Part shown: piece after piece, positions 22,437 through 44,889 of the stretch | Layout: each line of letters starts with the position of its first letter | Position numbering within the stretch: the stretch's first letter is position 1 | From: a virus | Lineage: Duplodnaviria > Heunggongvirae > Uroviricota > Caudoviricetes | Virus record (IMG/VR): IMGVR_UViG_3300018475_001475 | Length of the DNA: 48,029 bases | Strand: one strand, 5' to 3' | Notes under the pieces: generated by a model | What the model was told of the DNA's origin: nothing | Seen by the model: the letters and a program-made list of their open reading frames with translations, nothing else | Database searches by the model: none | Made by a program: the position numbers and the translations under genes

Positions 22437-24500
22437 TTAGTTAAAATAGCTATGTCTAGCTTTAGGCTTTTTAAAATCAAAAAAGTCTTCTAATTTGCTA
22501 GTATCAACTTTTCTAGTCACCAAATGCTCTCTTCGTAACTGTTGCAAAAAATGACATGCCATAACGAAAACATACGCACGGTCGTCGTTCAACTTATTAC
22601 TAACCGTTGGTGCCAAATCAAATCTATCATTTCCAGAGGCCTGTTTAAATCTATAAATATTAACAAGCTCAGTCTTCATAGCATCAATCTGTTTTAGCGC
22701 AACCTCTTCGTCACGACTTAAATCATACTTTTCACGAATAATTTCAATACCTTTTTTAGCAAGGTCTTTATATTCTGCTTCAGAAGGATCTTTGTCTCTA
22801 ATTGTTTTCTTGCCAGTCTTAGTGTCTAATTCGTATGTTAGTGTAATATAACCACGATTATCATATTCGGCAGGCCATTCAACTAGATTTAAATTAATCA
22901 TTTCAATAGCCGCCTTATACATTTCAACTTTATATTTACTTGGCTGAATTAGTATTAATTTATCAGTTATAGCATTGGGATATAGTCTTACAGCTTCTGG
23001 ACTATATTCCTTATCCAACAATCCACGATGCATATTACCATCTTTATCTAGCCAATCTTCCCATAAGAAGTCACTAGTTTGAACGCCTGCACCACCAGAA
23101 CCAGCGTCAATACCAATTCTCAAAATGTTCTCGTAATCAGCATATCCATCACCGTTATAAGTTAAAATTAAATTCTTTAACTCTTTGACCTGATTAGGTG
23201 TTGTCATTGGTGTTTTATTTTTCTTTTCAATATCAATAAGATTAACAACATTCTGTATTCTCATTTTCCAACCGACGACAGGATCTTGATAATATTCAGC
23301 ACACAGTATAACAGAGTTATCCTTGCTTCTTGCGGGGTCATAAAACAAACCCCATTTACCACCATTATCATTTTCTAATTTTGGAGGTTTAACACAAGAG
23401 TTTCTAATAATATCTGCACGCTTTATAATCTGTCCATCTCCACCTTCAGATGTAAAAATATTTTTATATTCTCTTAATGCGGCTTCTTTATCTTCACGCA
23501 TAGCTTGGTCAACCTTTTCCTGGGTCAGAAGAGGAACGGGCCACAACTTATTGTGAACTGTCGCATTAATAATTACATCGCAAGATATATCTGCACAAAA
23601 ATATCTCTTATCTCCGGCAAACATACGAATTGAAAACTCTCTATACTTTTTAAAGAAATACTGATCAGTTCGACCAGCAGAAGAACAGTATAGAAGCTGG
23701 TTAGGGAATGGACTCGGTTCTGCCAAAATATCTTCGGCGTTATAATCCTTACCCATTTTAAATTCTGAGTTCTGTGTTGTAAATGGTTCAGATGTATGGA
23801 ATAATTCATCTGCAGCATTCATGGCCTCATCATAAACATTAAGATTCGAACGCTTAGAGCGGTTATTATCAAAAGCGCCATTCAACGTAAAACACTGAGA
23901 TCCGCCATAGGTTCTCACAGTATAAGATGCAGGATTATGCACCCATCCAGTTGAATTGGCCTGAGATTTAACAACATTGCTCTGGAAAACGTCGTTTAGA
24001 TTAGTAAACGATGCAATATTCTTCATAGCAAATTGCTCCATCTTGGTAAACAACTCAATTGACTGTGAACCAACACCGGCCAATATATAAGCCTTAAAGC
24101 CAGGTATCAGCAACATCTTAGCCATAATAAACAAAGCGGCAAGCAAACTCTTACCGCCATTTCTACTCATGGCCCATACTACAAAAGGCTTATTCCATGA
24201 GCTATCAATTAAATATCTTTGGTAGTCCATTAACTGAACATTAAAAACCTCTTCTATAAAACGAGACGGGTTTCTACGACCCCATTGTAAAAATTCTGCA
24301 AGATCCATTTTTTCTCTATACTTCTTTGTTGTCATATCATATAGATTAGGTCTTACAAAAATGCCGTATTCTCCAAAGGTATCTTCGAGCTCTTTACACA
24401 GGTCTTTGAATCCCTCGAAACAATCTTCAATACAGCTTTCTAATATCTGTTGTTCGGTCAAAATGATATCACTCACTGTCAACCACCTGCCCAAACTCAT
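22437..24500 (-). CDS. terL: Terminase large subunit (true start may be the GTG at 24476)
   Basis: Walker A-like SRNGGKS, Walker B NVYDEA, RNase H-like nuclease FYDPARSKD..NDDRAY. Confidence 0.92.
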   Translation of the reverse strand: MSLGRWLTVSDIILTEQQILESCIEDCFEGFKDLCKELEDTFGEYGIFVRPNLYDMTTKKYREKMDLAEFLQWGRRNPSRFIEEVFNVQLMDYQRYLIDSSWNKPFVVWAMSRNGGKSLLAALFIMAKMLLIPGFKAYILAGVGSQSIELFTKMEQFAMKNIASFTNLNDVFQSNVVKSQANSTGWVHNPASYTVRTYGGSQCFTLNGAFDNNRSKRSNLNVYDEAMNAADELFHTSEPFTTQNSEFKMGKDYNAEDILAEPSPFPNQLLYCSSAGRTDQYFFKKYREFSIRMFAGDKRYFCADISCDVIINATVHNKLWPVPLLTQEKVDQAMREDKEAALREYKNIFTSEGGDGQIIKRADIIRNSCVKPPKLENDNGGKWGLFYDPARSKDNSVILCAEYYQDPVVGWKMRIQNVVNLIDIEKKNKTPMTTPNQVKELKNLILTYNGDGYADYENILRIGIDAGSGGAGVQTSDFLWEDWLDKDGNMHRGLLDKEYSPEAVRLYPNAITDKLILIQPSKYKVEMYKAAIEMINLNLVEWPAEYDNRGYITLTYELDTKTGKKTIRDKDPSEAEYKDLAKKGIEIIREKYDLSRDEEVALKQIDAMKTELVNIYRFKQASGNDRFDLAPTVSNKLNDDRAYVFVMACHFLQQLRREHLVTRKVDTSKLEDFFDFKKPKARHSYFN

Positions 24501-41853: not shown

Positions 41854-42216
41854 TCACTTGGTTTCGTCGTCTTGGGGCTTGGGCTTTCTTTTTTCTTCTT
41901 CATACTTGGCTTGAGACACAATTTTCTTGGTGTTGATGTAGAGGTTGCCTTTTTCGTCTGTCTTTATAAAACCTTTTTTCTCCAACGCCTTTCGGGTTTT
42001 GTAGTAGTTGTTTGGTTGGGTAATACCAGCCATACGCTGTACATAGGCTGTGCTGGGAGCGAAGCTTCCGTCGCCCTTGCAACCTAATAGGGTGAGGAGG
42101 ACTTTGGCCTCATTGCCGTTGCATATTTGGTTTATAGCAGAGAATAACTCTACAGGGTACGCTACGAAGTTTTTTGTCTTTTCTGGTTTGTCGTGGAATA
42201 CCTGTGGGGCATTCAT
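41854..42216 (-). CDS. Winged-helix DNA-binding protein resembling a replication-initiator N-terminal domain (start MNAPQ)
   Basis: NEAKVLLTLL..STAYVQRMAGIT..YKTRKALEKKGFI; AGGAGG SD; own promoter. Confidence 0.7.
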   Translation of the reverse strand: MNAPQVFHDKPEKTKNFVAYPVELFSAINQICNGNEAKVLLTLLGCKGDGSFAPSTAYVQRMAGITQPNNYYKTRKALEKKGFIKTDEKGNLYINTKKIVSQAKYEEEKRKPKPQDDETK

Positions 42217-42246
42217 AGGCCATTCCTCCTTTCTGTTTAGTGACAC

Positions 42247-42262
42247 ATTAATTTTGTGTCGT
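42247..42262 (-). promoter_or_regulatory. Motif variant ACGACACAAAATTAAT at predicted TSS
   Basis: Exact ACAAAATTAAT core. Confidence 0.5.
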
Positions 42263-42266
42263 TGAT

Positions 42267-42295
42267 ACTATAGCATACTTTTTTTGGTTTGTCAA
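42267..42295 (-). promoter_or_regulatory. SigmaA promoter, leftward
   Basis: TTGACA-17-TATAGT with extended TG. Confidence 0.85.
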
Positions 42296-42299
42296 GGGG

Positions 42300-42730
42300 G
42301 AGTTTTAGTTTGAAGTACCCCCCTACCTGTGTAGTTAAAAGTACCCCCGGTCGGGCCATTTAATAGGGGATACTTGTTGTTTTTATGTTGTAGAAGTGGG
42401 TAAATAAGATTTACTTGTAGTTGGTTTTTAGTTATTTGTAAGGGTAAGTTTTATTTACCCGTGGTTTTTAATAGGGTTTTGTTGGGGTTTGGTAGTTTTG
42501 GTGTAAAGGATTACATTATTTGGTGTTATTTTTTGGGCTTTATTTTTAAGGAATATTAATAGGAGTTTTTAATAAGTATCTGTTAATGATCTACCGAATA
42601 GTTTGACAAACTTTAAAGGGTTGGTGAATTTAATAGGTATTTCTTAATGAATACGGGAAGTTGACGAGTTTTGAGGTTGGATGTAGATGTTTTTTGTGAC
42701 TATTTTGTAGGTTGTATGATGTGGGTTTAG
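42300..42730. other. Non-coding, strongly G/T-skewed tract with short repeats
   Basis: Few C on the + strand; TTAATAGG x4; AAGTACCCCC at 42313, 42339 (third copy at 42811). Confidence 0.6.
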
Positions 42731-42790
42731 CGTAGCTCGGATTTTGCAGTCAGTGTGTAAATAAACTACCTTAGATCCCCTCGCTAAAAA

Positions 42791-42838
42791 CCACAACATA
42801 TTGTGGTTTTAAGTACCCCCGACCACTATATATAGTAT
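42791..42838. promoter_or_regulatory. Tandem NrdR-box-like palindromes
   Basis: CCACAACATATTGTGG (42791-42806) and CCACTATATATAGTAT (42823-42838), 32 bp start to start. Confidence 0.65.
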
Positions 42839-42860
42839 AAAAAGTCGGACAAATAGGGAT

Positions 42861-42888
42861 TTGACTTACCATGTAAATGTGGTATTAT
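42861..42888 (+). promoter_or_regulatory. SigmaA-like promoter, rightward (early)
   Basis: TTGACT-16-TATTAT with extended TG. Confidence 0.65.
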
Positions 42889-42914
42889 GTTAGTGTAATC
42901 AATAACTGATTACG

Positions 42915-43073
42915 CCAAGGGCAATAGCCCTTGGGCTGTTCCTTGAAAACTTGGTCTGTTCCCTGTATCCGTTTTTTGGGCTTGAAAAAGCCGTTTCTGT
43001 ATCGGATACTTGGGCTTGAAAAAGCCGTGAACAGGTTACGCCAAAATTTTGGGGAAATTGTTCCTTGAAAACT
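42915..43073 (+). promoter_or_regulatory. rrn-like antitermination leader: hairpin, boxA, two GAAA hairpins, boxA
   Basis: CCAAGGGC/GCCCTTGG stem; TGTTCCTTGAAAACT at 42937 and 43059; GGCTT-GAAA-AAGCC twice. Confidence 0.65.
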
Positions 43074-43420
43074 GAATATCACGGCATATGGTAACATTGT
43101 AGAGATACACACGCCTAGCCACCAGTCCGAGCAGGCTACAAGTCCTTTGGGATACTGTAAAACTGTCGCAGGCAATGGGGGCGTCCTGTCTTATAAAGGG
43201 CAGGGGATGAGATTTCCGTGGAGTGATAACCGTAGGCACGCCATGCCCAGCCATACTCACTCGCCATATGTGCCCTGCATGGGGCTATTGGAGATAATAC
43301 ACACCCATAGGGTTATTGTACACGCAGCAAATACCACAGTATACAATAACCATGTGACACTATGGGTCACTTTGAGGGGATAGTATATCTGTCCCTTGAA
43401 AGTGGCTCACAGCCACAAAT
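43074..43420 (+). ncRNA. Candidate structured non-coding RNA or long leader
   Basis: No credible ORF; several stems including CCCATAG+GGTTATTGTA / TACAATAACC+CTATGGG (43304-43366). Confidence 0.4.
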
Positions 43421-43456
43421 ATATTGAGCGTAAACGCTCGGAAAGAGGTAATAACC

Positions 43457-44128
43457 ATGAGTAAGAACAACATGACTATTTTCGCCGAAGCACTTTCTGT
43501 AAACCGTGACTTCAAGAACGCCCGCATCAGTGGACCTGCCGTTGGTGTAGCCAACGCTCGCAAGTGGGTGGCTGCTGTCAAGGCACTGCGTTTCCCTGCC
43601 TATGCTGTCCGTGTATATCGCTACAACAACATGGGCGAAGCTGAAACTGTCGCCAAGTGCAACGAAACTCCCGTATACGACGCCCTTGCACCTATCCTGG
43701 ACATGGTAGGCGAAGTCAACGGTGCGAAGCTGAACGCCCACAACATCGCAGAGGAAGTCATCTCTGCCGCTCTGCGTTTCCGTGTCATCGATATCACTCC
43801 CGAAATGGCTCACGCTCGCTGTGAAAAGCGTGTAGCTAAGAAAGCCATGGACGAGGACGAGAGCGAGGATACTATCGCTGCATACAACGCTGCCTGTGAC
43901 GAGGTAAAACGTCTGGAAGAAGAGCCTGGCAACTGCAAGCGTCTTGCTGAAATTCAGGCTGAAACTGCGTTCATCAAGGCTGTGGAAATCCTGCTTGGTG
44001 ACGCCATCAACAAGCAAGCCATGAAGTCTGCCGAAGAAGTCGCAGCCGAAGAAGAAGCCAAGCGTGCTGCACGCCGTGAAAAGACTAAGGCTAAGCGTGC
44101 TGCTAAGAAAGCTGCTGCAAACGCCTAA
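43457..44128 (+). CDS. First early gene, highly expressed-type protein of unknown function (start MSKNN, 223 aa)
   Basis: AGAGGT SD; strong codon bias; Ala/Lys/Arg-rich helical tail. Confidence 0.85.
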   Translation: MSKNNMTIFAEALSVNRDFKNARISGPAVGVANARKWVAAVKALRFPAYAVRVYRYNNMGEAETVAKCNETPVYDALAPILDMVGEVNGAKLNAHNIAEEVISAALRFRVIDITPEMAHARCEKRVAKKAMDEDESEDTIAAYNAACDEVKRLEEEPGNCKRLAEIQAETAFIKAVEILLGDAINKQAMKSAEEVAAEEEAKRAARREKTKAKRAAKKAAANA

Positions 44129-44156: not shown

Positions 44157-44207
44157 AACCTATAACCAGGGGGCATGAGTGAAAGCTCGTGCCCTTTATT
44201 ATGGGCT
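44157..44207 (+). other. Conserved intergenic stem-loop element, copy 1
   Basis: AACCTATAACCAG-[GGGC..GAAA..GCCC]-TTATTATGGGCT. Confidence 0.65.
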
Positions 44208-44571: not shown

Positions 44572-44598
44572 TTCACCTCGGCTGTGAGGTGTATTTTT

Positions 44599-44889
44599 AT
44601 GAAAACCACTCAAGAATTCATTAAGCACAAAATTGAGTGTCTTGATAACAAGTATCCAAATGCTATCCCTGTATTCGGTGGTGCTCTATGGGTGTACCAC
44701 GACAACGACTTCGACAGCAAACGCTTTATTGCAGGGTTGCACCACATTGCCGAAAATGCCGAGTTTTTCAAATGGCATGAGGGCGTTGCAGGTGCAATAC
44801 GCAGATACTGTAACATCTGCATGGTAGACCCTGTTGTCGTAGAAGTAGTGCTTGGTATGAAACTTGAAGAACTTTGTACAAGGGGGTAA
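44599..44889 (+). CDS. Early hypothetical protein (start MKTTQ)
   Basis: GAGGTG SD. Confidence 0.7.
   Translation: MKTTQEFIKHKIECLDNKYPNAIPVFGGALWVYHDNDFDSKRFIAGLHHIAENAEFFKWHEGVAGAIRRYCNICMVDPVVVEVVLGMKLEELCTRG

Follow-up and report, generated by a model that had tools for sequence, protein, structure and literature searches.

The early operon of this phage begins with a leader that holds two exact copies of the boxA sequence of Bacillota rRNA (rrn) operons. We propose, with a probability of roughly 0.6, that the leader acts through an rrn-type, NusB/S10-dependent modification of the host RNA polymerase. Given that two exact rrn boxA copies head the early operon, the phage most likely borrows the rRNA antitermination machinery of its host. 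The model is built on sequence features, namely the identity with rrn boxA, the order of hairpin and boxA, the 3' extension of the motif, its conservation on the sense strand, the promoter upstream and the terminator-like element downstream, while the transcription start, the binding of Nus factors and the read-through are its inferred parts.

The window analyzed is a stretch of 48,029 nucleotides. Its terminase gene (22437-24497, minus strand) has relatives of 80-97% identity on IMG/VR contigs of 110-172 kb, and the first early protein is found on metagenomic contigs of up to 170 kb. The genome of the phage is put at roughly 170 kb. It appears to be a large gut or rumen phage infecting Gram-positive (Bacillota) bacteria. 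Leftward genes begin at 42246 and rightward genes at 43457, which makes 42247-43456 a divergent control region. The divergent gene at 41854-42246 codes for a LexA-like HTH protein. The sequence AAGTACCCCC occurs three times in the control region (42313-42322, 42339-42348 and 42811-42820) and nowhere else in the 48 kb, where 0.01 occurrences are expected; this 10-mer is also present upstream of the early gene in eight leaders, and is possibly an operator or an origin iteron. About 100 nt 5' of the early -35 lies TTTGCAGTCAGTGTGTAAAT (42743-42762), which is among the best-conserved blocks of the relatives' control regions, with 10-mers common to 8-10 of 14 leaders.

For comparison, 15 divergent loci were fetched via homologues of the early protein, with 59-83% protein identity to that of the window. 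The motif counts cover 16 leaders, with 12.8 kb in total. In all 15 relatives, 0.7 kb or more before the early gene is free of genes, and no ORF was called in any of their leaders. The leader gave no match when used as a DNA query against the phage collection.

The elements of the leader and of the region just beyond it are as follows.

42861-42888, plus strand: early promoter of sigma-A type from the promoter scan, TTGACT-16 nt-TGgTATTAT, with an extended -10
42895-42913, plus strand: 5'-terminal hairpin of 7 bp, GUAAUCA-AUAAC-UGAUUAC; a similar hairpin is present in L038
42915-42934, plus strand: boxB-like hairpin CCAAGGGC-AATA-GCCCTTGG, with an 8-bp GC stem and an AAUA loop, 2 nt before boxA-1
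42937-42951, plus strand: boxA copy 1 (boxA-1), TGTTCCTTGAAAACT
42952-43058, plus strand: folded inter-boxA domain, closed by CUGUUC/GAACAG and holding a UAUCCG/CGGAUA helix
42979-42992 and 43013-43026, plus strand: two GGCUU-GAAA-AAGCC hairpins within the inter-boxA domain
43059-43073, plus strand: boxA copy 2 (boxA-2), TGTTCCTTGAAAACT, followed by GAAUA, with a conserved GGGG 5-8 nt upstream
43074-43300, plus strand: structured middle leader without an ORF, kept only in the sub-group L038, L042, L173 and L178
43300-43456, plus strand: conserved 3' leader module, including the long helix GGGUUAUUGUA/UACAAUAACC
43354-43370 and 43402-43416, plus strand: module hairpins, compatible with the sequences but with little covariation
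43368-43383 with 43389-43404, plus strand: module helix, whose 3' arm is the "third copy" discussed below
43426-43439, plus strand: covarying hairpin abutting the Shine-Dalgarno sequence GGAAAGAGG (43440-43448)
43457-44128, plus strand: first early gene (gene 1), 223 aa, with 267 metagenomic homologues
44171-44202, plus strand: terminator-like element just 3' of gene 1, GGGCAUGAGU-GAAA-GCUCGUGCCC then UUUAUUAU

The position of the promoter gives a predicted start near 42895, and therefore about 20 nt before the hairpin at 42915. The earlier note on this DNA had described an 8-bp hairpin at 42915-42934 about 20 nt after the predicted start, and the 15-mer at 42937-42951 recurring at 43059-43073 with two GGCTT-GAAA-AAGCC hairpins in between; the coordinates and the promoter agree with this description throughout. 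The two sites are the only exact copies of TGTTCCTTGAAAACT in the 48 kb. The GCTTGAAAAAGC hairpins are seen again in L039, L042, L045, L167, L169 and L173. The leader as a whole (about 560-565 nt) has no conserved ORF and folds with a z score of -4.9 against shuffled sequences. Its middle part (43074-43300) is replaced or absent in relatives outside the sub-group, while within the sub-group indels fall at hairpin tips, as is typical of structured RNA. An Rfam search of the whole window, which included the known cis-antiterminator RNAs, found nothing at gathering score. A resemblance to the pemK RNA motif (RF02913) at 43099-43221 was rejected, having 25.2 bits against a gathering threshold of 34.8; the corresponding likeness in L038 (2023-2124) reaches 27.5 bits and is likewise below threshold.

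The nature of the 15-mer was examined by scanning for exact matches in one genome per prokaryotic species; the 80 loci listed were then searched for 16S and 23S landmarks. At least 36 of these 80 loci lie 61-167 nt upstream of a 16S gene or 66-377 nt upstream of a 23S gene, and all 36 rrn-located sites belong to Bacillota, with taxa that include Bacillus, Priestia, Paenibacillus, Brevibacillus, Sporomusa, Heliobacterium, Exiguobacterium and one rumen Lachnospiraceae. Several further matches occur at locus or contig ends and resemble truncated rrn leaders; in a Eubacterium MAG, several contigs have the motif about 85 nt from their end, as in rrn leaders. A small hairpin stands before many of the rrn sites. 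The nucleotides that follow the 15-mer give a test of an nnAYA extension that is independent of the search, because positions +3 to +5 are outside the search pattern. At these positions A/Y/A is present in 36/36, 32/36 and 35/36 of the rrn sites, and in 18/24, 22/24 and 18/24 of the phage sites. Judged by its identity and location, the 15-mer TGTTCCTTGAAAACT is a genuine rrn boxA of Bacillota. The suggestion that the leader imitates the boxA of a host rRNA operon is supported in this respect: the 15-mer is identical to the boxA of 16S leaders and 16S-23S spacers in many Bacillota, at no fewer than 36 of the 80 loci listed. In a sample of 201 Clostridia genomes, the exact 15-mer was present in 12 and a reversed-pattern control in 3, a count that says little about the host because the majority are MAGs without rrn operons.

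The exact 15-mer also occurs outside rrn operons, on one Anaerovoracaceae MAG contig (L080:3481-3495 and L115:2174-2188) and in a Bacillota MAG (L053). There it lies about 60-100 nt past an ORF that by eye resembles a sigma factor, and is followed by AAATA or GAATA. These sites may represent a boxA-led operon in a mobile element.

The earlier note had proposed to examine conservation in related phages, and the motif is indeed conserved there, with a strand bias. In the leaders of 14 of the 15 relatives, at 64-83% identity of the early protein, the sense strand carries TGT[T/a]C[C/t]TTGA[A/c]AA within flanks that are unalignable. The dialects seen in the phage boxA sites are TGTTCC, TGTACC, TGTTCT and TGCTCT. 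Relatives usually carry two copies, 109-174 nt apart and 284-852 nt before the start codon; L043 and L166 have a single copy, L041 has the variant CGTTCTTTGATAA, and the distant relative L169 has the motif only as variants with three mismatches. When up to two mismatches to the 13-mer are allowed, there are 30 sense and no antisense matches in the 12.8 kb of the 16 leaders, compared to 4 matches in 66.6 kb outside the leaders and a mean of 0.25 in shuffled leaders. A 100-kb relative has the motif at a single site, in the early leader.

The surroundings of the first boxA are also maintained. In 10 of 13 leaders it follows, at a distance of 0-4 nt, the end of a stable GC hairpin with a loop of GAAA, GCAA, AACA or AAUA. 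The stem sequences vary among leaders, and it is therefore the structure of this hairpin that is kept, not its sequence. The second boxA mostly has no stable upstream hairpin. In 10 of 14 leaders, the sequence 72-103 nt upstream of the first boxA contains a promoter of the type seen in the window, and in the remaining leaders TTGATT, TTGCTT or TTGCAT variants were read by eye. There is no conserved block after boxA-1 across the relatives; the boxC-like GU-rich element expected after boxA is that of the E. coli model.

In relatives with 80-87% terminase identity (G002-G006), the leader and the early gene are absent, and no non-coding boxA was seen in G002-G005; the single TGTTCCTTGTAAA matches in G002-G006 were rejected as leader boxA, all being inside coding regions. 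The absence in this clade speaks against the proposed model, as do the variants of L041 and L169. A scan of viral contigs for the two-copy pattern matched only collagen-like repeat genes, and these matches were attributed to chance. In a gut metatranscriptome run, a 232-nt contig of a relative spans the equivalent of 42926-43078; it shows neither transcription nor its start, since it is an RNA-library contig for which the share of words is small.

The earlier note had also proposed a degenerate third copy of boxA. The sequence in question, TGTCCCTTGAAAGT, is present at 43390-43403, but was rejected as a boxA because it forms the 3' side of a helix that covaries. This helix (43368-43383 with 43389-43404) has 15 of 15 pairs formed in all 13 leaders, with compensatory changes in 10 of the 15. 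None of 500 shuffles reaches the observed pairing, and sliding the partners abolishes it. In several relatives the 3' arm reads CCCTAGAAAG or GCTCAGAAAG, which is unlike boxA.

Gene 1, which follows this module, is the most conserved early gene. Its protein has no family match in Pfam or PHROG. The AlphaFold model (pLDDT 87) has no significant match in the PDB or in AFDB clusters, and is predicted to end in a basic helix of about 30 residues, rich in Lys, Arg and Ala. The stem of the terminator-like element beyond gene 1 covaries in L038, L042, L167 and L169. The element may be a weak terminator or a mere RNA-stabilizing hairpin, because its U-tract is interrupted. In L178 (2213-2271), L041 (3240-3304) and L044 (3220-3271), a twister-P1-like ribozyme is found instead about 40-60 nt past the gene 1 stop, with 50-61 bits (E = 3e-11 to 2e-8), a little short of the gathering score (67.2); none was found when it was looked for in the window. 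The ribozyme-like element thus replaces the terminator-like hairpin of the window, and either would give the gene 1 RNA a defined 3' end. Further along, a hairpin CACCUCG-GCUG-UGAGGUG followed by UAUUUUU (44574-44601) encloses the Shine-Dalgarno sequence of the early gene that comes next (ATG at 44599). It might act in termination, in the control of translation, or in both.

On the plus strand beyond gene 1, no promoter-like site scores above 9 of 12. The small plus-strand early proteins that were tested have no Pfam or PHROG family, and no N- or Q-like family was found among them; Pfam models of NusB and NusG found nothing in three related phage records. This is compatible with the idea, already put forward, that there may be no phage N protein: N-, NusB- and NusG-like genes were not found among the early proteins and the three related records.

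A mechanism can be proposed as follows. Host RNA polymerase would transcribe the early operon from the sigma-A-type promoter, starting near 42895, and within the first 60 nt the RNA would display the hairpin and the Bacillota rrn boxA, with boxA-2 following some 120 nt later. Host NusB-S10 would be recruited by the boxA sites and, together with NusA and NusG, would turn the polymerase into a fast, pause-resistant and termination-resistant complex of the rrn type. Such a complex would be able to cross the untranslated and strongly folded leader (roughly 400 nt), which translation would not shield from Rho, and would then read past the terminator-like hairpin of gene 1 into a long series of small early genes, apparently without strong promoters of their own. 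Rrn-type complexes serve transcripts of this sort, in which a long untranslated leader is followed by a terminator-like element. The model presupposes that the rrn boxA of the true host resembles TGTTCCTTGAAAA. B. subtilis can dispense with Rho, and rrn antitermination is so far undemonstrated in any member of the Bacillota (PMC13753749), so that the benefit to the phage may differ from that expected from the E. coli model.

Other explanations were considered. The leader could be a nut-like site that uses a phage factor, in which the hairpin next to boxA binds a phage RNA-binding protein and an N-type complex is formed with the Nus factors. The basic-tailed gene 1 product is one candidate for this factor, as the product of the most conserved early gene and with no known fold, and the structure of the hairpin before boxA-1 is maintained, several relatives having a GNRA-like tetraloop in it. 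However, the hairpin precedes boxA as in rrn, whereas in nut sites boxA precedes boxB; boxA-2 mostly stands without a stable hairpin, and no N- or Q-like family was found among the early proteins. Neither the loop nor the stem sequences before boxA are conserved, and therefore there is no specific protein site. We consider this explanation unlikely. A coincidental likeness to boxA, with the motifs acting in the DNA as -35-type elements or as operators for a DNA-binding protein of phage or host, is harder still to accept, since the strand bias is strict (30 versus 0) and the identity with rrn boxA extends over 15 nt plus the rrn-specific 3' extension. It is true that the motif contains TTGAAA or TTGACA, that weak promoter-like sites are seen at 43065 and 43396, and that the divergently encoded LexA-like protein (41854-42246) could supply a DNA-binding partner. 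But the conserved promoter is located upstream of the motif, and no conserved -10 follows the motif at a fixed spacing in the relatives, so that the motif is not itself a promoter. The chance of such a DNA-level role is slim.

Three further explanations accept the boxA but give it a different purpose. The leader might titrate NusB-S10 as a decoy and starve the host rrn operons, as a form of host shut-off in which any benefit from read-through is secondary. A strong promoter, two or more boxA sites in each leader, and an RNA that is long, folded and probably stable are what this would call for; yet a decoy has no need of a position at the start of an operon or of the rrn hairpin order, and L043 and L166 manage with one copy, which makes this role improbable. 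A related but somewhat less improbable idea, although still a doubtful one, is that the leader is a miniature mimic of an rRNA operon, in which a functional phage RNA requires the boxA complex for its co-transcriptional folding, and not for read-through alone, while the boxA pair diverts NusB-S10 from host rrn. This RNA would comprise the inter-boxA domain, the structured body and the conserved 3' module, which would make the leader an early RNA effector, more than a 5' UTR. Least probable is negative control as at E. coli suhB, where leader-bound NusB-S10 would cut translation or favour Rho termination. BoxA is able to promote termination in some contexts (PMC5725501, PMC12360218), but suhB-type sites are within about 50 nt of the start codon, while here boxA is 284-852 nt upstream, and the element adjacent to the ribosome binding site is a different, covarying structure.

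It was reported only in 2026, in work that included NMR titration, that B. subtilis NusB binds rrn boxA-like RNA directly after a small 5' hairpin, and according to the same work an rrn antitermination complex has yet to be demonstrated in Bacillus (PMC13753749). Two rrn-type boxA sites kept under selection in a widespread phage family, at the head of a protein-coding operon, are independent evolutionary evidence of an effect on RNA polymerase in Bacillota. The succession of promoter, hairpin, boxA, folded leader, gene and terminator-like hairpin is also a compact natural test piece for reporter or in vitro assays.

Compared with the Bacillota rrn signal, the phage leader has the identical 15 nt, the nnAYA extension, an adjacent upstream hairpin, a position within about 40 nt of a strong sigma-A promoter, and structured untranslated RNA downstream. 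It differs in that it precedes a protein-coding early operon and has no 16S/23S processing stems, and in that the phage copies are about 120 nt apart whereas the rrn copies flank 16S. BoxA is known outside rrn at suhB and upstream of CRISPR arrays in gamma-proteobacteria (PMC13753749, PMC5725501). These share with the phage a boxA outside rrn on a long RNA that is untranslated or poorly translated, where it modulates Rho-dependent termination; unlike the phage leader, they are Gram-negative chromosomal loci, and suhB is repressive and adjacent to the ribosome binding site. Lambdoid nut sites (boxA, spacer, boxB and N) similarly place boxA and a hairpin early in a phage operon with terminator-like elements, but the order of elements is reversed in the window and its relatives, the hairpin sequence is unconserved and no N-like protein was recognized.

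The closest precedent is T7, in which a boxA antitermination element is located behind the early promoters for host RNA polymerase and boxA mutations give a genetic phenotype (PMC3709561). The proposal that the leader is an undescribed system therefore does not stand in that form, as the boxA of the T7 early leader is already published (PMC3709561); in the literature searched, there was no report of boxA in phages of Gram-positive bacteria. In both cases, a phage of virulent type has a host rrn-type boxA after early promoters for host RNA polymerase (A1-A3 in T7) and has no recognized N protein. The differences are in the host phylum, in the boxA dialect (UGUUCCUUGAAAA here and UGCUCUUUAACA in E. 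coli), in the stable hairpin before boxA, and in the conserved RNA module near the ribosome binding site and the protein gene that follow. The leader thus appears to be the Bacillota-dialect counterpart of N-independent phage boxA use, with good comparative support, and would extend the T7 strategy of using the host boxA without N to large phages with a Bacillota-type boxA.
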